DNA from: Planctomycetota bacterium
GTDB lineage: Bacteria; Planctomycetota; UBA8108; SXIK01
Direction: 5' to 3'
Length of the DNA: 64,000 bases
Assembly: GCA_965223265.1 (NCBI GenBank)
Contig: OZ244999.1
Location: forward strand, 5,056,001 to 5,120,000
Below, one piece after another: positions 10,014-40,557 of the stretch (its first letter is position 1; the number at the start of each line of letters is the position of its first letter). The position numbers were made by a program, and so were the translations under genes. The notes beneath the pieces are model-generated. The model was not told where the DNA came from. It saw only the letters and a program-made list of their open reading frames with translations, and searched no databases.

Positions 10014-11036
10014 TCACTTTGCCCCGGTGGCCTCGTCCTGACGAACCCCTTGCAGCGCGACGGTAGCGTGCTGTGTGAACTCAGCATAGCGCCCGCCAAG
10101 GTAGCTCAACTTGCCTTTGACGTCGATGACTGCCCAGTGCGGCGTGCGCGGAATCGCGTAGGCGCTCGCGATGTCGGAGTCGAAACCTTCGGCGGCGTGA
10201 AACTGCGGCCAGCGAACCGCCCAGTCCGCAACACCCGTCTCAAAGGTTTCCGCCGATCGATCGAGATTCACCGCGAGAACGACGATGCGGCCGCGCAGGT
10301 GGGGATACTCTTCCATAGTGCGAACCCGGCTGTCGGCGAGATCTTGGGCATTTGTTTTTTGCTGCTCATTCGCGGCGCGCCAAAAGCAGAGCAACACGAC
10401 GTTTCCTCGGAGCTCGGCGACGGAGTAACGCTTCGATTTGCGGTCCAGGTCGAAGGTGAGGTTGAATTCCGGCGCCTGCTGGTCACCTCGCGCGAGTTCG
10501 AGATAGCGAAAGTCCCGCGCGGCACGCTGCGACCATTCGCTCTGGGGATACGCGGTCGTCAATTGCTGCCAGTAGTCATACGCGCCGCGAAGCTCTCTGC
10601 CGGATCGCCGCGAGATCCGCGCGTAGTGGAGCCCGCGCAGGTACTGCTCCAGCCCGAGCACAAAGAGCGCCCGACTGCGCTGCTCGTCCGCTGGCGCGGC
10701 GACTGCGATCTCTTCGTAGAGGGCCTTCGAGCGCGCCCACTTGCCCGTGAGGCGGTGGAGCTCCGCCATCAACTCCCGCGCTTCGGAGGTAACCCCCGCA
10801 AGCTCAGGATGGCCGGCGCAGCGGAGGACGAACTCCTCCAAGTCCGCCGCCACACGGGCAGCGTTGAGTCGCACCGCGTATTCATCCGGGTAGCGTTCAC
10901 GCAGAGATTGGCGCAGCCGAGACCATTCCTCGGCAGTCGGTTTGGCGGCGGTGGAAGCGTTGTCGCCCGCTATCGCTGGCGCGAAGAGAAAAAGCAGACA
11001 AACAGTAGCCTGGAGGAAGAAACAACAGGTTCTCAC
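10014..11036 (-). CDS. exported TPR-like + TlpA/thioredoxin-fold protein lacking CxxC
   Basis: GTG start with GAGG SD and signal peptide; APEF..., LRGNVVLLCFWRAANE, LAVNLD, YAIPRTPHWAVIDVKG. Confidence 0.75.
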   Translation of the reverse strand: MRTCCFFLQATVCLLFLFAPAIAGDNASTAAKPTAEEWSRLRQSLRERYPDEYAVRLNAARVAADLEEFVLRCAGHPELAGVTSEARELMAELHRLTGKWARSKALYEEIAVAAPADEQRSRALFVLGLEQYLRGLHYARISRRSGRELRGAYDYWQQLTTAYPQSEWSQRAARDFRYLELARGDQQAPEFNLTFDLDRKSKRYSVAELRGNVVLLCFWRAANEQQKTNAQDLADSRVRTMEEYPHLRGRIVVLAVNLDRSAETFETGVADWAVRWPQFHAAEGFDSDIASAYAIPRTPHWAVIDVKGKLSYLGGRYAEFTQHATVALQGVRQDEATGAK

Positions 11037-11117
11037 TTTAACCTCATAGACGTGGGTCGGCTTGACTTCCGGCACCAAAAAAAATGCAATTTTTCCCTTG
11101 ACCTGAAACGAAAAGAC

Positions 11118-11145
11118 TTGACACTCGTCCTTCGTGGCATACAAT
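11118..11145 (+). promoter_or_regulatory. near-consensus sigma70 promoter
   Basis: TTGACA-N16-TACAAT with an A/T-rich upstream segment. Confidence 0.6.
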
Positions 11146-11151
11146 TTTTGA

Positions 11152-11862
11152 GCGAGAACGTTTGATTTGCCACGTGGAAAAAAGACCGTGGGTTCACAGG
11201 TGGTTGTTCTCGGTGGTCCTCGGCCGTAGTGACGGTCGAAGCCCAACCGGGCCGCTTGAGACTCGCCGCTGAGAGAGCAGCTCGAACGAAACGCTCGAAC
11301 AATCATGCTCGACCGAACGTAAGAGACGGCCGCACGAAAGAAAACGATCCGAGCGGATCAATGATGCGCGGACCAACAGTGCGCAGATCATTCACGCGCA
11401 GATTATTCACGCGCAGATCATTGATCTGCAGAGTAACAGTGACGCGCAGATCATTGATCTGCAGAGTAACAGTGCAGAGCCGGCTCCTCATGTCGCCGAC
11501 ATGGAGCTCAGACTCGGGACAGCCCAAACACCCAAGAAAGAACTAGCAAGCATTAGAAGCAGCTGTAGATCGATCATCTCCGATCGGTCACGCGAAGCCC
11601 TCCGCACCTGGGACGCGGCTGAGCGACGCGCCGAGATCGCAAACACGAGTCTAACAAGCGCAGCGAGCTGACGCAAGTTATCGAACCGCCGGACTGAACG
11701 CCACCGAGTTGTTCACGAACAACTCCCGGCGCTCGAGTCTACGAGAGACGGACAAAACAGAATAGAAAAGCCGAGGTTGTCCACCACCACGTAAAATCGA
11801 GGGATCACTCCACCAACCACCAGTTCCTCGGTTCCCTGGGCTTTTCTATCTTTGTCTCTTAG
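11152..11862 (+). ncRNA. candidate large structured non-coding RNA (~700 nt)
   Basis: Own promoter, no credible ORF, many hairpins including G-U pairs on the + strand, 5'/3' long-range complementarity, long terminal stem with a U-rich 3' arm. Confidence 0.45.
11381..11474. repeat. tandem repeats: 15-bp units plus an exact 33-bp duplication
   Basis: gcgcagatcattcac / gcgcagattattcac / gcgcagatcattgat; acgcgcagatcattgatctgcagagtaacagtg twice (11409-11441, 11442-11474). Confidence 0.9.
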
Positions 11863-11891
11863 CTCGCCTCGCTCTGTCCCCTAGCCCAGGC

Positions 11892-12182
11892 CTAGTCCTC
11901 ACGGGCGCCGGCGAGAGGATTGCGCAAGAAACGTCGCCAACACGCCGGACAAAGGTCAAACGCGAACGTCCGGTGAACGTCGTCTTGAGCCTCCGTTGCG
12001 TCTTGTCGCTCAAGCGCCTCGATCGTCGCCTTCATCTCCGCTTTGAGATCCCGGGCGAGCGAGTCCGTAGAGATCTCCAGCACGTCGTAGGCGGCGAACC
12101 CTTCCACCTTCAGGACGTATCGAACGTCGGAATCGAGAAGGAGATTGTCGTTGCAAGAGTCGCAAACTAAGCCGTCCACCAT
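11892..12182 (-). CDS. small putative Zn-binding protein (CxxC...CxxC)
   Basis: Strong SD aaggaggg; CDSC ... DLCPAC; 96 aa. Confidence 0.8.
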   Translation of the reverse strand: MVDGLVCDSCNDNLLLDSDVRYVLKVEGFAAYDVLEISTDSLARDLKAEMKATIEALERQDATEAQDDVHRTFAFDLCPACWRRFLRNPLAGARED

Positions 12183-12271
12183 CCCTCCTTCTCCCAAGCC
12201 GCTGACGCACTCGACCTCCACGAACAGCGCGCCCAACACGCCGCGCCAACACTCAACCCGCGGAGCACACG

Positions 12272-14197
12272 CTACTGGGCGGCAGAGCCGGAACGCCGTT
12301 TCGTAACAGCCTGGAGGTGCTGGTGCAGCTTGTCGAAGCGAGAGGTGAGTTCCTCACTGAGACTGAAGAGCGGAATCTCAGGTCGCTCAACTTGGGCATA
12401 GTAACCCAAACGCCCGACACCATCTACGGGACGCCCGATGCGAAGCGAAAAGGTCTCTTGTCTTCGATCCCGAAGATAGACGATGCGGACCTGCCAAGCC
12501 TCTCCCGGTTCGGCCAAGCCCGTGACGGCGGGATCAACGGTTTCGAAGAACTGCTCAGCGCGCAGTCGGTGACGATCAGTCGCGTTGACCAGTTCGTCGA
12601 CCAAACGGCTGTCAAGCTGTGCGCCGTCGACAAGGCTGCCGACCTCGAGCGCCCACGTTTCTTGTCCGACAGGTCGCAGAAGGTTCCAAAAACGACCGGC
12701 ACGTCCGATCTGAATTTCGACAACGCCTGCGGCGTTGACGTCAGAGATCGAGCGATCGTAAAAAGTGAACGCTCCCCCACTCAAAATCTTCGGCACCGGA
12801 GAGAACACCAAGTACCCCCCGACTTCGCTGCTACGCGCGGCAAAGAACACGTCGGAGTCGGCGTCGAGCGGATCGGTAGAGCGATCACCGAGCAAGATCT
12901 CCTCCTGGCGGCCAGACTGCAACTTGACGGTGATGCGAATCGCCGCTGGGTCTAGATTGACAGAGGTGCGATCCAGAGCATCCAAGAACTTTTCGATCGG
13001 CATTCTTCCAAGCTCACCGATCAGGTTCGCGATCCGCTCTTCGTCGCCCGTGAAAACGTCATTCTGGGCAGCGCGGTGGACGCGCCAGATTTCTTTCGTA
13101 CGCTGCGATTCTGATGGCTCTTCGACTTCCATTCTTGTCATGACGTACTCAGCTTCAGGAACGCGCGTCGAGATCGCCACACTCTTGACGTCGACGAAAT
13201 CCCAGTCGAGCAGGTATCGACTACGAAAAAAATCTGCGTCCTTCGCTGCGTACGTAGCGACGTCATTCGCGGCGGTGAACACGAACGGACGATCACGGTG
13301 GCGCACATGTACGAGCTTCCGTCCGCTCACCTCAAACGGCGGACTCACGTCGAGCGTCAGCGACTGTCCGCCTAACCGTTCGATCGTGAGAGTGATGGCG
13401 GGGTTATCGAGACCATACTTTGCCAGCTCTTCAGGGCGCTCCGCTGCTTCGTCGACAAAATCGACGACGGCCCAAGAGTTCAAGTCAGCCACGAGTTTTC
13501 CGACGTTCTCCCGGTCAGCCGGTACGTCAACAGGCTTGGTCATTCGCCACTCTCGCGATTCCTTGCCATAGGTGAGCTCCACCGCGTGGTCGGTGTGTAT
13601 GTTCACTCGGCTCACCTCGTCGGGCGGGATTGGAACCAGTGCGCGAGAGCGCAGCTCGTCAAGTGTGACGACGAAAGCCTGCCGCATGTCTTTGCGCGTC
13701 CAGAAAAACTCACCGTCGACACGCACAGCTGTGAAGTGCACGGAATCGTCCGGGTGATCATCCCCGATCTCGATAACGACCTCTCTTCCGGAGGCGGTCT
13801 TCAAATCAATCCGTGCGAACGCATTCTCTGCAAAGGCCTCCGCATCCTTATCTTCACGAATCTCACCGACGCGCACCATGTCGACGATGGCGAAGATGAG
13901 CCCTTGTACCCGTGGGTGAAACGCTGGAAAGTGAAACGGCTCCACCACCCACCACCGCGGCAACTGTTGCTTGTGGCTTTCGTACTTGAGTGCAATCGGA
14001 CGAGCATCAACGCCAACTTCCGCGTCAAGGAGAGCCGACGGCCTGGCGATCGAAAGTGCGACGACATCGGACGGCTCCAGATCAGAGAACACACGTCCGC
14101 GTCGCTCCCAGACCGGTGCACTCATTTCGAAGAACCGAACGTAGAGAGTGAGGAGCACGGCGATGGCGAGCAGTTTCGCATTCGATGCCCAGGTCAT
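12272..14197 (-). CDS. DUF4340-domain periplasmic accessory protein
   Basis: N-terminal anchor; repeated W..(P)...AD...V..L and YGLDNP modules; follows the GldG-like gene. Confidence 0.75.
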   Translation of the reverse strand: MTWASNAKLLAIAVLLTLYVRFFEMSAPVWERRGRVFSDLEPSDVVALSIARPSALLDAEVGVDARPIALKYESHKQQLPRWWVVEPFHFPAFHPRVQGLIFAIVDMVRVGEIREDKDAEAFAENAFARIDLKTASGREVVIEIGDDHPDDSVHFTAVRVDGEFFWTRKDMRQAFVVTLDELRSRALVPIPPDEVSRVNIHTDHAVELTYGKESREWRMTKPVDVPADRENVGKLVADLNSWAVVDFVDEAAERPEELAKYGLDNPAITLTIERLGGQSLTLDVSPPFEVSGRKLVHVRHRDRPFVFTAANDVATYAAKDADFFRSRYLLDWDFVDVKSVAISTRVPEAEYVMTRMEVEEPSESQRTKEIWRVHRAAQNDVFTGDEERIANLIGELGRMPIEKFLDALDRTSVNLDPAAIRITVKLQSGRQEEILLGDRSTDPLDADSDVFFAARSSEVGGYLVFSPVPKILSGGAFTFYDRSISDVNAAGVVEIQIGRAGRFWNLLRPVGQETWALEVGSLVDGAQLDSRLVDELVNATDRHRLRAEQFFETVDPAVTGLAEPGEAWQVRIVYLRDRRQETFSLRIGRPVDGVGRLGYYAQVERPEIPLFSLSEELTSRFDKLHQHLQAVTKRRSGSAAQ

Positions 14198-14198
14198 T

Positions 14199-15728
14199 TC
14201 ACTTTCGCCTCACAAAATACACGATCGCGCCAACGAGGACGAACAGGCCCGGAAACACAATCACCGGCACCCAAAAGAGAAACCTCTCGATTTGCCGGCT
14301 ACTCCGAAGCGTCCGACGCGTCCACTCTTGGTTGCCGAACGTTGCTTTCTCTTCTTCGCCAGCAAGCCATGCCACCGCGTTCAGCGTGAAGTCACGGTGA
14401 CTACGTTGCAGCAGGCTATGGTCGTGCAAAAAACTCGCCGACGAAACGACGACGAGTCGGTAGTCGCGGTGCTGAAAATCCGGAGGGGGGCGATCGGGGA
14501 CAAACTGCGACAGCGCTGCACCCACAACGAAATCTCCCGGTTCCGGAAGTTGTCGCGTTTCCCGCGTCAAACGGTGGTAGTAGAGTACACCCTCGGTCTT
14601 CGATGAGACGAGGTCGAGAAGACGAGCAGCCTCGACACCGAGAGCTTTGGCTTTGAGGACGAGTGGCCGCGGCGCGAACATCATCATCTCGAACGCGGCA
14701 GCTTGGGCGAATACGTCGGTAATCGGATGCGTCGTGCTGTGGCGCTGGACAATCGAATTCTCCGATTGCTGCACAGTGGCCGCCAATTGACGGCGCTCGA
14801 CGATCGAACCGGTCAGCGCCTCGATCCCCCACGACTCCAAAAGCGTCTCGATGCCGGTCACCTTCGGTCCGAGGGCGACGAAGAGACGCCCACCTTGTTG
14901 CAGGTACGCCTCCAACACATCGAGCTCGTTTTGCGAGAAGGACTCCAGCGGTCGTATCACAAACAGGATAGCGCAGTCTGAGGGGATGCTGTTGACCCGC
15001 GACAAAGCGAGCGGTCGCGCCTCGTATCCTGAGGTCTCGAGCTCCCGCTTCAGGGTCGCGGCGCTCGGCTCGGTCCCAACGACATTCAAACGCAGCTCTT
15101 GCTTGTCCTGCGTGAAGTAAACAGGACGGCGCTGCAGATTGATGAGACGCGTGATCGCTGCGGTCAATGCCGACTCGCCGAGGAACGCTTTCACCTCAGG
15201 TTCCTCAATGGCCGCGTCTCTCACCTCTCCGAACAGCGCAAGATCCCTCGGGGTCACCGTCTGACGGTACTCGCCTGCATCACCTGAGACGAAAATGAAC
15301 CGATTCCGTTGAGTCACTGCTAGGTCGTAACGCTCCCGGACCTGCAACCAACGCCCATCTTCGACAAGGATATCGATCTCTTCCAACTCAATGAGCGGCT
15401 GAACGGCCATGTATTCTCGCAGCAGCAAACGTGCACGCATCAAGACCTTAAGGTGAGCCCGCTCCAGGTTGCTCTGCGACGAGTACAACTTCGGAAAGAC
15501 GACCCGAATCTTATGGTTGACAGCAGCCAAGCGCGCGAGCGTTTCACGTGACAACGTATTTAAGCTCTCCGCAGTCAGATCGAAGCGGGCGGGGTGGCGA
15601 AAGATGATCAGATTGAGAATCAACAGGATGTAGAACGCCAGGAAGACGCCGACGAGCAGCTGTAGACGCCCACTCCAACGCTTGCCACGACTGAAAGTTT
15701 TCGCCCGTTTCACTTCCAACTCCTTCAT
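14199..15728 (-). CDS. GldG-like ABC-type uncharacterised transport accessory protein
   Basis: N- and C-terminal TM helices, RFDLT...TLS..T, DFTLNAVAWL; ATGA overlap with the permease stop. Confidence 0.8.
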   Translation of the reverse strand: MKELEVKRAKTFSRGKRWSGRLQLLVGVFLAFYILLILNLIIFRHPARFDLTAESLNTLSRETLARLAAVNHKIRVVFPKLYSSQSNLERAHLKVLMRARLLLREYMAVQPLIELEEIDILVEDGRWLQVRERYDLAVTQRNRFIFVSGDAGEYRQTVTPRDLALFGEVRDAAIEEPEVKAFLGESALTAAITRLINLQRRPVYFTQDKQELRLNVVGTEPSAATLKRELETSGYEARPLALSRVNSIPSDCAILFVIRPLESFSQNELDVLEAYLQQGGRLFVALGPKVTGIETLLESWGIEALTGSIVERRQLAATVQQSENSIVQRHSTTHPITDVFAQAAAFEMMMFAPRPLVLKAKALGVEAARLLDLVSSKTEGVLYYHRLTRETRQLPEPGDFVVGAALSQFVPDRPPPDFQHRDYRLVVVSSASFLHDHSLLQRSHRDFTLNAVAWLAGEEEKATFGNQEWTRRTLRSSRQIERFLFWVPVIVFPGLFVLVGAIVYFVRRK

Positions 15729-16471
15729 CGCCATTTGCGAGCCTCGACGATACGAACCGAAAAGAGCAGGAACAACGCTGCGAATGAAACGTAAAAGAAA
15801 ACGTAGCGCAGGTCCACGATCCCGCGCGTGTAGTCAGTGCTGAAGTGAGAGGTGTAGCTGACATACCGAATCAATCGAACGACCTCAGGATCATGCCGAA
15901 AGAGGGCGTACAACATCGACACCAGCGTCAGCAGCAAATTGCCGGTGAGCGCGAGGATCGCAGCGATGAGCTGATTGCGCGTGCCGGCAGACGTCAGCAG
16001 TCCAATCGAATTGGTCAAGAGACCCAACGAGAAGAGACCGATGTAGACGGCGATCACCGGCCCCCAATCAGGACTACCGAGGACCTCGAGTATGAAAAGG
16101 AGCGGCAGCATCGTCAACCAAACGAACATGTAGAACGTTTGCGCGGCGAAAAACTTGCCTAGGACGACTTCGACCTCACGCACCGGCGCAGTCATCAACA
16201 TCTCAAGGCTCCCGGTGCGTTTCTCCTCGGCAAACAGTCTCATGGTCAGAAGTGGCGAAAGAGGTAGGATCCAGATCAAGTTGAGACCAAAGAGACTCTC
16301 CACGATGAGAGTGATTTGCTGAGGCTGCCCCGCGTGATAGCGACAGTAGTACAAAAACAAGATGCCGTTCGTCAGCGCGAACAGAAAGAGAACCACGTAG
16401 GCCATCGGCGAGTAGAAGTAGGCACCGAACTCGCGGAGAAAGATGGATACCGAGTTTCTCACAAGCGTCAT
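15725..16471 (-). CDS. ABC-2 type permease (GldF-like)
   Basis: REF.AYFYSPMAY, PLLTMRLFAEEKRTGSLEMLMTAP, VVLGKF. Confidence 0.9.
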   Translation of the reverse strand: MTLVRNSVSIFLREFGAYFYSPMAYVVLFLFALTNGILFLYYCRYHAGQPQQITLIVESLFGLNLIWILPLSPLLTMRLFAEEKRTGSLEMLMTAPVREVEVVLGKFFAAQTFYMFVWLTMLPLLFILEVLGSPDWGPVIAVYIGLFSLGLLTNSIGLLTSAGTRNQLIAAILALTGNLLLTLVSMLYALFRHDPEVVRLIRYVSYTSHFSTDYTRGIVDLRYVFFYVSFAALFLLFSVRIVEARKWR

Positions 16472-16564
16472 AGGTGTGCGCGCCAGTCGGCGGCCTCGTC
16501 ACTTCTTCTTTTTTCTGAGCGGAAATTCGAGATCAATCTGTCGCGGCGCGACGGTTGTTTCCAA

Positions 16565-17506
16565 CTACGCCACGGCCTGCTCGATGATATCCACGAACAC
16601 GTCCTCGAGCGGGCGTTCTTCGCTGCGCAGTTCGCGCAGACTCCAGTCATGCTTGCGGACCGTCTCGAAGACAAACGGGCGAATGTCAAGGTCACCGCTG
16701 ACGTCGATGACGAAACGACGATACCCATCATCGACGTCAGCCGAGACTTCAACTCGGTGGATTCCGTCACCGTGCCGGAGAGCGGTTCTTGCGTCCTTCG
16801 CCGGCGCGGCGATCTCGGCGATGACACGCAGTGAGCTACCGAATCGTTTGCGGAGCCCAGAAGCCGCATCCCTAGCGACGATCGTGCCCTTGTTGATGAT
16901 CACAACGCTCGAACAGACCAGCTCGACCTCGCTGAGGATATGCGTCGACAGAACGACGGTCCGGTCTGCACCCACATTTTTCAGCAATTGACGGAACTGT
17001 CGCACTTGCTCGGGGTCAAGCCCGACGGTCGGTTCATCCAAGATGAGAACCTTCGGTTCCGCGAGAAGCGCGTCGGCAAGACCGACGCGCTGACGATATC
17101 CTCGCGAGAGCGTGCCGATGATCCGCCGCCCCACAGCCTCGATGTCTGTGGCGCGCAGCGCTTTCTCGATCAGCCGCCGGCGATCGCGCCGTGGGACCTG
17201 CTTAATGCGAGCTCGGAACTTCAGATACTCCGTCACGCGCATCTCCGGGTAAAGGGGGACGCCCTCCGGCAAGTATCCCATCGACTGCCGTACGCGTACG
17301 GACTCCGTGCGTACGTCAGCACCAGCGACGCGAACCGTGCCGCTGTCGCCAGGCAAAAAGCCCGTAATGATGCGCATCGTCGTCGATTTACCGGCGCCGT
17401 TCGGCCCGAGAAACCCGAGAATCTCCCCCTCCTGGACAGAAAAAGAAACCCGATCGAGCGCCTGCACACCACTGAACGACTTGGAAAGCTCGTGGACTTC
17501 AATCAA
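16565..17506 (-). CDS. ABC transporter ATP-binding protein (GldA-like)
   Basis: GPNGAGKST, LSRGYRQRVG, ILDEPT, STH. Confidence 0.93.
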   Translation of the reverse strand: MIEVHELSKSFSGVQALDRVSFSVQEGEILGFLGPNGAGKSTTMRIITGFLPGDSGTVRVAGADVRTESVRVRQSMGYLPEGVPLYPEMRVTEYLKFRARIKQVPRRDRRRLIEKALRATDIEAVGRRIIGTLSRGYRQRVGLADALLAEPKVLILDEPTVGLDPEQVRQFRQLLKNVGADRTVVLSTHILSEVELVCSSVVIINKGTIVARDAASGLRKRFGSSLRVIAEIAAPAKDARTALRHGDGIHRVEVSADVDDGYRRFVIDVSGDLDIRPFVFETVRKHDWSLRELRSEERPLEDVFVDIIEQAVA

Positions 17507-17821
17507 CAGACGTCTCCATGGGCCGGTTTATCTCAAAGGGAGGAGGAGCCAATGGCTGTGAGCGACCATTGTAGAGAGCACGACGGCGTTTGCCAGACGC
17601 TAGGTAGCTGCACACGACTCTGAATGAGCCGGCCATTGACGGCCGCAGTAGCGGCAACTTGAGCAGGCATCCTGTCCAGACGAGAATCGAGCGGGCAACG
17701 TTGCATGGATTCGAAGGAGCCGCAGCGGCAGGTTGGTGAAAACGGGGCAGGGGCGGGTGGAAGAAGGTCAAGTGCGGCCTGAGCCATCTAACAGCCCAGG
17801 GAGAAGGACAAGGCGGGAGGT

Positions 17822-19273
17822 TCAATAGGAGCGGCGTTCGCGCGAGGAGGCGATGCCTTCAGCCTCGCGATACTTTGCGACTGTGCGGCGAGAGATGTGA
17901 ATCTGGTGCTGTTCGGCGAGAGTTCGCGCAATATCGATATCGCTGAGCGGCTGTTCCTTGCTCTCCTCGGCGATCATCTTTTTGATGCGCTCGATAATGC
18001 TGCCACGCGCCTCGGTGCTTCCATCGGACTTCGTTGCCCCTCCAGTGAAGAAAAACTTCATCGGATAGATTCCACGCGGCGTCTGCATGTATTTGTCGCT
18101 GATAGCGCGACTGATCGTCGAGACATGCACGCCGACACGTTCGGCAACTTCGACCATCTTGAGCGGCTTGAGGCGAGAGACACCGTGGTCGAGAAACCCA
18201 GCCTGGATCTCAACCAGTTCGTTCGCAATGCGCTGGAGCGTTGACTGACGTTGCCGGATCGCGGCCATGAGCCATTCGGCACCATCGATCTTCTTCTTCA
18301 GATACTTGCGGATCTCGGGGTCACTACGCTGCTTGTAGAGCGTGTGGTAGTGGGGACTGATACGGAGCCGAGGCAAGTAGTCCGCCTCCACGCGCACGAC
18401 ATACTTTCCCTCGACCTCCTCGACGATGACGTCGGGCTTGATGAACCGAGGCGTTTCGCCACCGAACAACAGCCCCGGCCTGGGGTTCAAACTGGCGATG
18501 TTCTCGGCGGCCACCTTGACCATATCGATCGTGACCCCAAGACTCTTCGCGATCTTCGGCAAACGGTTGTGCCCCAGATCGGCGAGGTGTTCCCGCACGA
18601 TTCGCTCTTCGAGAGGGTATTGCTGAGGATCCCGCCGAAGCTGCAGCAACAAGCATTCCTGGAGATCTCGTCCGCCGATTCCTGGAGGGTCGACTCCCTG
18701 GACGACGCGCAGTGCCCGCTCGAGATCTTCGAGGGAAGGCCGCGGCTCTTCAAGCGACGCGAAGATCTCATCGAGTGAATACATGAGGTAGCCGCGATTG
18801 TCGATGTTGTAGATGAAACTCCGACAAAGGTCCCTGATGCGGTCGAGTCCGGTTTCAGTACCTGCAAGTCGCGCCAACTCTTTGGTATCGAGGAGATCGA
18901 CCTGAGTCTCAAGGTGCTCTTGGAGAGACTCTGGACGCCCCTCAGTGTTGCTCAGTGCCTCCAGCTTGCCGTCTCTCTCGCCGGAATATGAACGCCGCGT
19001 CGACGCTTCCTCGCGAGCATAATCCGTCCAGCGCTCGAACCGCTCCTCGAAGTTGTCACCGCTGGGATCACGGTCCTCGAGCGACTCGCGCTCGGTGTCC
19101 TTTGGCGCCTCCGCAACCTCGAGTGCGACGTTGTTGCCCACTTCGGTCTCGATGCGCTCTTCCAGGTCGAGCGAGTTCAGGCACAGAATCTCCATCGACA
19201 TGTACATCTGCGGAGACAGTGTCTGAATCTGTTTGATGGTCTGCTGCTGAGAGAGACCAAGCTCCATTCTCAT
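17822..19273 (-). CDS. rpoN: RNA polymerase sigma-54 factor
   Basis: Q-rich region I, DPPGIGGRDLQECL, HVSTISRA, RpoN box SRRTVAKYRE. Confidence 0.97.
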   Translation of the reverse strand: MRMELGLSQQQTIKQIQTLSPQMYMSMEILCLNSLDLEERIETEVGNNVALEVAEAPKDTERESLEDRDPSGDNFEERFERWTDYAREEASTRRSYSGERDGKLEALSNTEGRPESLQEHLETQVDLLDTKELARLAGTETGLDRIRDLCRSFIYNIDNRGYLMYSLDEIFASLEEPRPSLEDLERALRVVQGVDPPGIGGRDLQECLLLQLRRDPQQYPLEERIVREHLADLGHNRLPKIAKSLGVTIDMVKVAAENIASLNPRPGLLFGGETPRFIKPDVIVEEVEGKYVVRVEADYLPRLRISPHYHTLYKQRSDPEIRKYLKKKIDGAEWLMAAIRQRQSTLQRIANELVEIQAGFLDHGVSRLKPLKMVEVAERVGVHVSTISRAISDKYMQTPRGIYPMKFFFTGGATKSDGSTEARGSIIERIKKMIAEESKEQPLSDIDIARTLAEQHQIHISRRTVAKYREAEGIASSRERRSY

Positions 19274-40453: not shown

Positions 40454-40557
40454 TTGATATCGACCGCATCGATGGGCTGGCCAGTGCCGCAAGCTGGGAA
40501 AAACTCGGACTGTTTGTGTGACGTTGACATCACGATTGAAAAAGCTAGGATACCTGC

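Follow-up and report, generated by a model that had tools for sequence, protein, structure and literature searches.

To our knowledge, very few regulatory RNAs are known from the Planctomycetota. Known small RNAs (sRNAs) include some with a functional terminator hairpin and others that are processed from the 3' end of longer transcripts, and RNAs such as CsrB/RsmZ and CrcZ bind proteins. The cuckoo/RSs0680 (CcsR-type) sRNAs of Alphaproteobacteria are described, in the excerpts of PMC4615179 that we consulted, as multi-copy RNAs of 2-4 adjacent hairpins with CCUCCUCCC in each loop. For the Planctomycetes, the consulted parts of Weinberg et al. 2010 (PMC2864571) list the Rhodopirellula-1 motif, a candidate RNA that was typed as cis-regulatory and is not in Rfam. 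Here we analyze an intergenic region from the 9.18-Mb genome of a Planctomycetota bacterium (GCA_965223265.1), located in a 64-kb window that covers positions 5,056,001-5,120,000 of contig OZ244999.1; window coordinates are used throughout. The region is a gap of ~855 nucleotides (nt; 851 nt as searched) that separates two minus-strand genes, a thioredoxin-like gene that starts at ~11036 and a Zn-ribbon open reading frame (ORF) that ends at 11892. A first-pass annotation, made from the sequence alone, had proposed that the gap encodes a structured RNA of about 700 nt. We find that its last ~90 nt (11761-11853, + strand) are a conserved structured domain, a three-helix junction, and that this domain seems to belong to an undescribed family of Planctomycetota RNAs.

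Conservation and structure of the RNA domain

When the gap was compared by blastn with 40 relatives, the match was confined to query positions 721-817 (window ~11760-11856), where 12 genomes aligned at 81-90% identity. Nothing in the upstream part of the gap matched, and two further short rows (E ~0.002-0.003) fell at unrelated places. Gene order and orientation are kept in the related loci, and the flanking proteins are 26-36% identical there; as judged from these identities, the RNA domain is far better conserved than its neighboring proteins (~30% identical).

We built three covariance models, R1 from 12 sequences, R2 from 31 sequences, and R3 from 12 subfamily and 12 distant sequences, with which the domain in the window scores 108.8, 104.3 and 88 bits, respectively. 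Model R1 identified one copy in 12 of the 20 other genomes of the order (3/3 in family f1, 9/14 in f2 and 0/3 in f3) and had no match in the 38 genomes that represent the class's other four families. The RNA is present in 8 of the 9 order genomes that are at least 90% complete, our own included. Pattern scans of two public collections contributed 13 additional genome loci, titled as Planctomycetota or Planctomycetia metagenome-assembled genomes or as "uncultured bacterium", and 27 metagenome loci. From 40 forward-strand matches we retained the 37 that were full-length (three cut by contig ends were dropped, as were eight weak reverse-strand rows), and these represent 31 distinct sequences.

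The domain is closed by a long stem, P1, in which UAGAAAAGCCGAGG (11763-11776) pairs with CCUGGGCUUUUCUA (11835-11848), both on the + strand as are all parts described here. Double changes are found at 11 of its 14 pairs; the window has one G.G mismatch (11773/11838), and at locus L045 the stem is entirely rewritten and fully compensated. A single U (J1/2) leads into P2 (11778-11791), a mini-hairpin of 3 base pairs (bp), namely U.G, G-C and U-A (11778-11780 with 11789-11791), around the loop CCACCACC (11781-11788); these three pairs show no variation among the 31 sequences of the subfamily. The next junction, J2/3, is UAAA (11792-11795), part of a CGUAAAA core that is invariant in 31/31 subfamily sequences, and the UAAA is retained with two exceptions in 31 more distant matches. 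P3 (11796-11805 with 11823-11832) has double changes at 5 of its 10 pairs and 98.1% of its cells paired, and its versions among relatives include UUAAGAGAU/GUCUCUUAA, UCAAGGGAU/GUCCCUUGG, CGCGGUGGC/GUCACUGCG and CCGGCCGAU/AUCGUCCGG. Its hairpin loop, CACUCCACCAACCACCA (11806-11822), is 17 nt long and free of G; it contains ACUCCACCAACCACCA, which is invariant in 31/31 sequences, and is a candidate seed or binding site. The last junction, J3/1, is UC, and a U-rich tail follows P1.

Over the 31 sequences, 95.3% of the 744 cells are paired, and double changes occur at 16 of the 24 pairs. None of 500 column shuffles equalled any of five covariation measures, and sliding the partners by 1-3 columns lowered pairing to 38-58%. 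The single-stranded parts of the domain are invariant in the subfamily and include the junction core GG-UUGU...CGUAAAA...YCC, with the qualification that the collection scans required two invariant single-stranded blocks, including CCACCAACCACC, so that invariance in those blocks is by construction except in the 12 genomes found by blastn. Homologues and covariation support the first-pass annotation for 11761-11853 and leave the rest of its segment without such support.

It is the + strand that folds, as indicated by several properties of the alignment and its surroundings. Frequent G.U pairs would turn into A.C mismatches if the other strand folded (column pair 46-64 is UG in 22 sequences and column pair 11-81 in 10), and model scores are 75-117 bits on the forward strand versus 21-24 bits on the reverse. 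The promoters described below lie on the same strand, and the marine genus, L045 and the distant loci L075, L088 and L097 have canonical + strand terminators, a hairpin plus a T-run, past the element, in some relatives 5-15 nt further on. In the window, the U-rich tract UUUUCUAUCUUUGUC (11842-11856) lies partly inside and partly past P1, and is the probable 3' end or terminator tail of the RNA. P1 and the U-rich tail are common to all members, and an additional canonical terminator is present in some relatives only.

Metagenome locus L048 has a tRNA gene (1070-1143) directly next to the RNA domain (978-1071, +) and in the same orientation, which hints that in that lineage the two are co-transcribed and the 3' end is formed by tRNA processing.

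Promoter and transcription unit

The first-pass annotation had drawn attention to a TTGACA-N16-TACAAT promoter that points into the gap. This sigma-70-type promoter (11118-11145, +) is present, with its -35 hexamer TTGACA at 11118-11123, a 16-nt spacer and its -10 hexamer TACAAT at 11140-11145. It matches the consensus at 11/12 positions and is the sole promoter-like site that a promoter scan detected in 10800-12300, where shuffled sequences yield 0.3. The transcript would be expected to start near 11152.

The relatives are similarly equipped. A promoter-like site (at least a 10/12 match to TTGACA-N16-18-TAnnAT) lies upstream of the element on the same strand in 20/31 related loci; on the opposite strand of those upstream regions such sites occur in 0/31, the shuffle expectation being 0.6 loci. 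The exact pattern TTGACA-N16-TAnnAT stands upstream of 17/31 loci, and there are 17 occurrences of it in the whole 9.18-Mb genome of our organism, both strands counted. The distance from promoter to element varies greatly among the 20 loci (32, 45-52, 116-167, 217-264, 371, 484 and 615 nt), and the window, at 615 nt, has the longest. The promoter is kept at a varying distance from the terminal domain, and we conclude that the two belong together, separated by a spacer whose length and sequence are free to vary.

The best reading of these data is that 11118-11856 (+) is a single non-coding transcription unit with its own strong promoter. On sequence evidence the RNA has a promoter of its own, as expected of an independent trans-acting sRNA gene. 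The first-pass annotation had described such a unit, non-coding, on the + strand, with its own promoter and with structure; the unit and its promoter are supported, and the structure is confined to the last ~90 nt instead of extending over ~700 nt. The region is not a multi-copy miniature inverted-repeat transposable element, which the first-pass annotation had named as a refuting outcome: the whole ~851-nt gap matches itself alone in the genome.

Two other occurrences of the exact promoter pattern deserve mention. A second site in the window (40524-40551, +) has an ATG 6 nt past the -10 hexamer and may serve a leaderless mRNA. At G000:C1:3971577-3971650, two of the 17 exact patterns point away from each other on opposite strands, their -35 hexamers 17 nt apart, which looks like a divergent promoter pair.

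A wider family in the Planctomycetota

Comparison with Rfam 15 (4227 models, including OLE, ROOL, GOLLD, 6S, SRP, tmRNA, RNase P, ribozymes and riboswitches) yielded no match at the gathering score in the 64-kb window, an outcome that the first-pass annotation had named as support for novelty. With the threshold relaxed to E<=10 over 10900-12000, only chance-level miRNA, snoRNA and Actino-pnp rows appeared, far below gathering and none over 11761-11853; in 16 related loci, Rfam identified tRNAs and chance rows and none at the element.

Related RNAs were found beyond the order. In a sample of 150 genomes of the phylum, model R2 matched weakly (27-41 bits) in 10, at elements that share the core and differ in their loops. 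Model R3, at E<=0.001, matched 31 of 150 other phylum genomes with 1-7 matches per genome, where the E-values of a home-built model are rough and the weakest matches (28-32 bits) are possibly false. Within the class R3 contributed one weak addition, for 13 of 58 other genomes in all, and in our own genome it had one match. Among the 31 best distant matches, 19 of 22 pairs show double changes, P2 included, and 89.9% of cells pair, in an alignment that was fitted to the model and hence leans towards the structure.

The core GGUUGU..CGUAAAA..YCC is kept phylum-wide, the distant members included, and the loops vary. P2 is in these members a hairpin of 3-5 bp or longer, often with a GNRA loop and with double changes at 4 of 5 pairs; its forms include GUGC-GNRA-GCAC, GCUC-UA-GAGC, ACCU..GGGU and long versions. 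The P3 loops are poor in G and rich in C and U; most contain CUCC, several contain CACUCCAC, and four (L090 and L092-L094) contain CCUCCUCCCC. We define the Planctomycetota junction sRNA family by a P1 that ends ..RGYCRRGG / CCYYGRCY.., followed by UU, a P2 hairpin (G-Y..R-C), CGUAAAA, a P3 with a G-poor loop, and a Y before the 3' strand of P1. The element in the window shows every one of these features, and it is best read as a single-copy, order-specific version of a wider family with C/U-rich loops. Four genomes (G060, G125, G149 and G154) have 5-7 broad-model matches each, versus exactly one copy per carrying genome in the order of the window, and the family seems to have expanded in some Planctomycetota lineages.

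This appears to be an undescribed RNA family that is found in many Planctomycetes. A full-text literature search for Planctomycete small or structured RNAs returned no paper that concerns a Planctomycete small RNA by its title or the start of its abstract. The main text of Weinberg 2017 (PMC5737381) does not contain "Planctomyc", "Pirellul" or "Gemmata", which leaves room for a motif listed only in its supplements.

Function and alternative explanations

We favor the reading that the RNA is a trans-acting, base-pairing small RNA, and put its chance of being correct at about even. It would account for the strong promoter of its own, the terminator-like closing stem, the G-free invariant loops on a conserved junction, the multiple copies with varied loops in other lineages, and the resemblance of the loop motifs to anti-Shine-Dalgarno sequences. 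The near-consensus sigma-70 promoter would start the RNA near 11152; the first ~610 nt would be a fast-evolving leader, partly made by tandem duplication, and the last ~90 nt, the compact junction at 11761-11853, would be the functional part. The A/U-rich base of P1, with the U-tract that follows, probably also ends transcription. The invariant, single-stranded, C-rich loops could act as seeds on a conserved scaffold and pair with G-rich sequences in target mRNAs (GGUGG/GGAG, for example in ribosome-binding regions), and the leader might be trimmed off, or might transiently mask the loops via its GGUGG blocks. The 16S 3' end of the organism is canonical (..GGAUCACCUCCUUUCU), and GGAG and GAGG show ~2-fold enrichment ahead of crude ORF starts, so that loops of the CUCC type could pair with ribosome-binding sites.

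A number of observations weigh against an sRNA of this kind. The genome contains no site of at least 12 nt complementary to the loops besides the opposite strand of the gene itself, loop-complementary 10-mers occur at about the chance frequency predicted from composition, and GGUGG shows no enrichment ahead of crude ORF starts (124 versus 159 in a background window). The consensus promoter is absent at 11/31 loci, 2 of which have <100 nt of upstream sequence. A terminator scan of the window found no canonical terminator past P1 and flagged only an internal 5-bp stem. None of the public sequencing runs that match the stretch is listed as an RNA run (four match, all from one study, stored as contigs and of unstated kind). 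Some distant copies lie 42-115 nt past the end of a same-strand gene and could be 3' untranslated region elements. Part of the loop invariance was built into the collection scans, and the breadth of the family depends in part on the rough E-values noted above. Finally, the ~35 near-invariant loop nucleotides exceed what an mRNA seed usually needs, and would fit a protein or a conserved RNA partner too.

Two specific possibilities were considered and set aside. The sequence at the start of the Zn-ribbon gene, a candidate pairing site, is AUGGUGGAC in the window and ATGGACGG in the relatives, and the match is unconserved. The GAUCAC that precedes UCCACC resembles the 16S 3' end, yet it varies among relatives, and we regard the resemblance as coincidence.

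The failure of mRNA target searches is among the points that would be explained if the RNA were instead a protein-binding sponge or scaffold, on the model of CsrB/RsmZ and CrcZ, in which four CCACC-type repeats in two single-stranded loops on an invariant junction would bind an RNA-binding protein specific for C/A or pyrimidines and so titrate or recruit it. A short motif repeated in loops would suit this role, as would ~35 loop and junction nucleotides that are invariant across two families whose proteins are ~30% identical, and a junction core that is maintained phylum-wide while the loops vary. We nevertheless consider a sponge doubtful. We found no candidate protein, and Pfam identifies no known RNA-binding domain among the neighboring proteins; each RNA has only 2-4 copies of the motif; and the motifs elsewhere drift to CUCC or CCUCC, which resemble anti-Shine-Dalgarno seeds.

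The gene neighborhood bears on another explanation, in which the domain acts in cis at the 3' end of the genes that converge on it, either as a bidirectional terminator or stabilizer shared with that operon or as a cis-antisense RNA on its 3' end. In the syntenic arrangement, the thioredoxin-like gene points away from the RNA, and the Zn-ribbon and DUF4340 genes point towards it. The former (10014-11036, -) encodes a thioredoxin-like/AhpC-TSA protein with a signal-peptide-like N-terminus, Pfam matches just below cut-offs and a weak TPR match. The latter include the small Zn-ribbon-like ORF (11892-12239, -; 115 codons, CxxC...CPxC, no Pfam family), which is the last gene of a string that further comprises, at 12272-19273 (-), rpoN (sigma-54), an ABC ATPase, an ABC-2 permease, a GldG-like ABC_transp_aux protein and DUF4340. 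A convergent Zn-ribbon homologue lies a few to ~200 nt from the RNA in 23/30 related loci, and in L054 the two overlap by 8 nt. This proximity speaks for a cis element, as do the A-tract/U-tract base of P1, which provides a hairpin plus U-run on both strands, and the distant copies that closely follow a same-strand gene. Several facts make such an element unlikely, however. A terminator does not need invariant loops, and the evidence from G.U pairs, model scores, promoters and downstream terminators agrees that the folded strand is the + strand. The marine genus lacks the Zn-ribbon gene and keeps both the RNA and its own downstream terminator. The distant copies have same-strand upstream genes that are mutually unrelated (Sua5/LMWPc, HEAT, SpoIIE and AIRS, in a gene context that was taken from crude stop-to-stop ORFs and is noisy in GC-rich DNA), which argues against a gene-specific cis element.

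In the Zn-ribbon protein, the C-terminal ~74 residues are 45-61% identical in 23/30 related loci, and at the truncated locus L063 the identity is 67% over the 27 residues available.

The first-pass annotation had favored one large structured RNA of ~700 nt, in the OLE/ROOL/GOLLD size class, or a fold-back riboregulator that switches 5' and 3' blocks between mutually exclusive folds. Its individual observations were accurate: all of the hairpins that it listed are where it placed them, and so are the complementary blocks ggtggttg 11199-11206/caaccacc 11814-11821, ggtggt 11212-11217/accacc 11783-11788 and cctcggc 11218-11224/gccgagg 11770-11776, together with cctcgg at 11826-11831. The GGUGG-rich segment of the leader (GGUGGUUG..GGUGGU-CCUCGGC, 11199-11224, +) is thus complementary to the loops of P3 and P2 and to the 5' strand of P1; any role for it would be conjectural. 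Its predicted duplex with the P3 loop (-18.1 kcal/mol versus -10.4 +/- 2.2 in shuffles) was reached by 1/200 shuffles. The 719-nt + strand also folds better as a whole than its dinucleotide shuffles, at -264 kcal/mol versus -225.7 +/- 7.6 (20 shuffles; z -5.07, and -2.56 for the minus strand).

When the region was divided, this excess proved to lie in two segments. The segment 11152-11375 (+) has a z-score of -0.18, with 77/200 shuffles as good, and 11481-11760 (+) one of -1.72 (11/200). The repeats at 11376-11480 reach -2.6 on the + strand (3/200) and -3.0 on the - strand, and the terminal 93 nt (11761-11853) reach -3.8 on the + strand, with 0/500 shuffles as good, versus -2.0 on the - strand. 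Most of the hairpin density therefore stems from a palindromic tandem duplication and from one genuine structured domain; the better-than-shuffled folding is borne out for the whole region and for the terminal domain, and the leader outside the repeats is near chance. The repeats (11381-11474) consist of a 33-nt unit in two 100% identical copies (11409-11474) beside 2.8 copies of a related 15-nt unit. The palindrome GCAGATCATTGATCTGC occurs within each tandem unit, and the paired gcagatca-t-tgatctgc hairpins of the first-pass annotation are the two 33-nt copies. The pattern points to recent growth of the spacer by slippage or duplication.

A large RNA or a switch also agrees poorly with the relatives, and we consider either very unlikely. 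The leader (11152-11760, +; ~610 nt, the longest among the compared loci) is unconserved in sequence, and among the 20 loci with a promoter its length ranges from 32 to 615 nt; only the last ~90 nt of the proposed structure are conserved. Covariation favors P1 and P3 over the alternative pairs, joining gccgagg (11770-11776) to cctgggc (11835-11841) in P1 and cctcgg (11826-11831) to tcgagg (11797-11802) in P3. The minimum-free-energy fold of the full transcript and its ensemble both retain the local domain. In the nested-fold ensemble the P3 loop is open, at an opening cost of 0.04 kcal/mol that is equal with shuffled leaders; nested folding cannot represent kissing contacts, and this result has no bearing on kissing between leader and loop. 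GGUGG, the complement of the CCACC loops, was seen 16 times in the 20 leaders versus 3.1 expected from dinucleotide shuffles, at 3.7 per kb versus 1.0 upstream of the promoters and 1.2 genome-wide, counts that are small and come from interrelated loci; it is absent from all five loci with short leaders (32-142 nt).

In the marine genus, the leaders of L030, L038, L029 and L052 share the block AAAAAGGUGGACCGCRGAGCGUAACUUGAUCCGCCGCUUC ~100-135 nt upstream of the element. It holds the only GGUGG in these four leaders, which come from close kin, and its conservation alone is weak proof.

A small protein encoded by ORF 11229-11546 (105 aa) or another leader ORF can be dismissed: the frame is open from a GTG start 12 nt past a GGUGG, but it has no Pfam family, passes through the tandem repeats and, in tblastn against 43 syntenic or related loci, matches the window alone. 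Some relatives have a leader of just 32 nt, and we agree with the first-pass annotation that the + strand has no convincing ORF.

Returning to the trans-acting sRNA, contact between leader and loops via the GGUGG blocks survives as a lead. In an extended and rather improbable version of the favored reading, the transcript would, in lineages with long leaders, be a self-masked "pro-sRNA" in which the leader GGUGG kisses the CCACC loops until the leader is cut or displaced, the GGUUGU..CGUAAAA..YCC junction docks a Planctomycete RNA chaperone, and the family constitutes the main anti-Shine-Dalgarno-type class of riboregulators in the phylum.

The RNA unites a three-helix fold that covariation supports with one of the best-matching promoters of its genome, and it has relatives in about one fifth of the sampled phylum genomes, often in several copies. 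It gives a concrete starting point for work on post-transcriptional control in a phylum whose cell biology is unusual, and its alignment is ready for use as the seed of a new RNA family. The case also carries a caution: a hairpin-rich gap of 700 nt with a strong z-score resolved into a 90-nt module behind a repeat-inflated spacer.

Comparison with described RNAs

The Rhodopirellula-1 motif comes from the same phylum and is a different motif: its rows, as given in the consulted parts of PMC2864571, read AAC..GAU..GAAC...GUUAUC..GUU. In the four supplement files of that paper, CACGUAAAA, AGGUUGUG and GCGUAAAAC occur as scattered single matches, and no consulted passage there has two of the three.

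The large RNAs OLE, ROOL and GOLLD are, like the RNA in the window, non-coding and intergenic and have no obvious cis target. They differ from it in extent, with 500-800 nt conserved versus ~90 nt here, where the long part is unconserved, and these families have no Rfam match in the region even at E<=10.

A closer likeness exists to sRNAs with a terminator hairpin or a processed 3' end, which also have their functional domain at the 3' end, with a stem and U-tail, behind a variable upstream part. In our case, that upstream part is a non-coding leader of highly variable length with a conserved strong promoter, and processing is putative.

With the cuckoo/RSs0680 RNAs, as described in the excerpts of PMC4615179, the family shares its nature as small non-coding RNAs, often in several copies per genome, and four of the distant members reported here carry CCUCCUCCCC once, in the P3 loop. 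The architecture is another one. Instead of adjacent hairpins, the RNA in the window has three helices that meet at a junction with the invariant GGUUGU..CGUAAAA..YCC core, and a single long stem closes it; its loops are CCACCACC and CUCCACCAACCACC, without CCUCCUCCC, and it belongs to another phylum. On this comparison the RNA is not a member of the cuckoo/RSs0680 family, and those sRNAs are its closest functional analogues.

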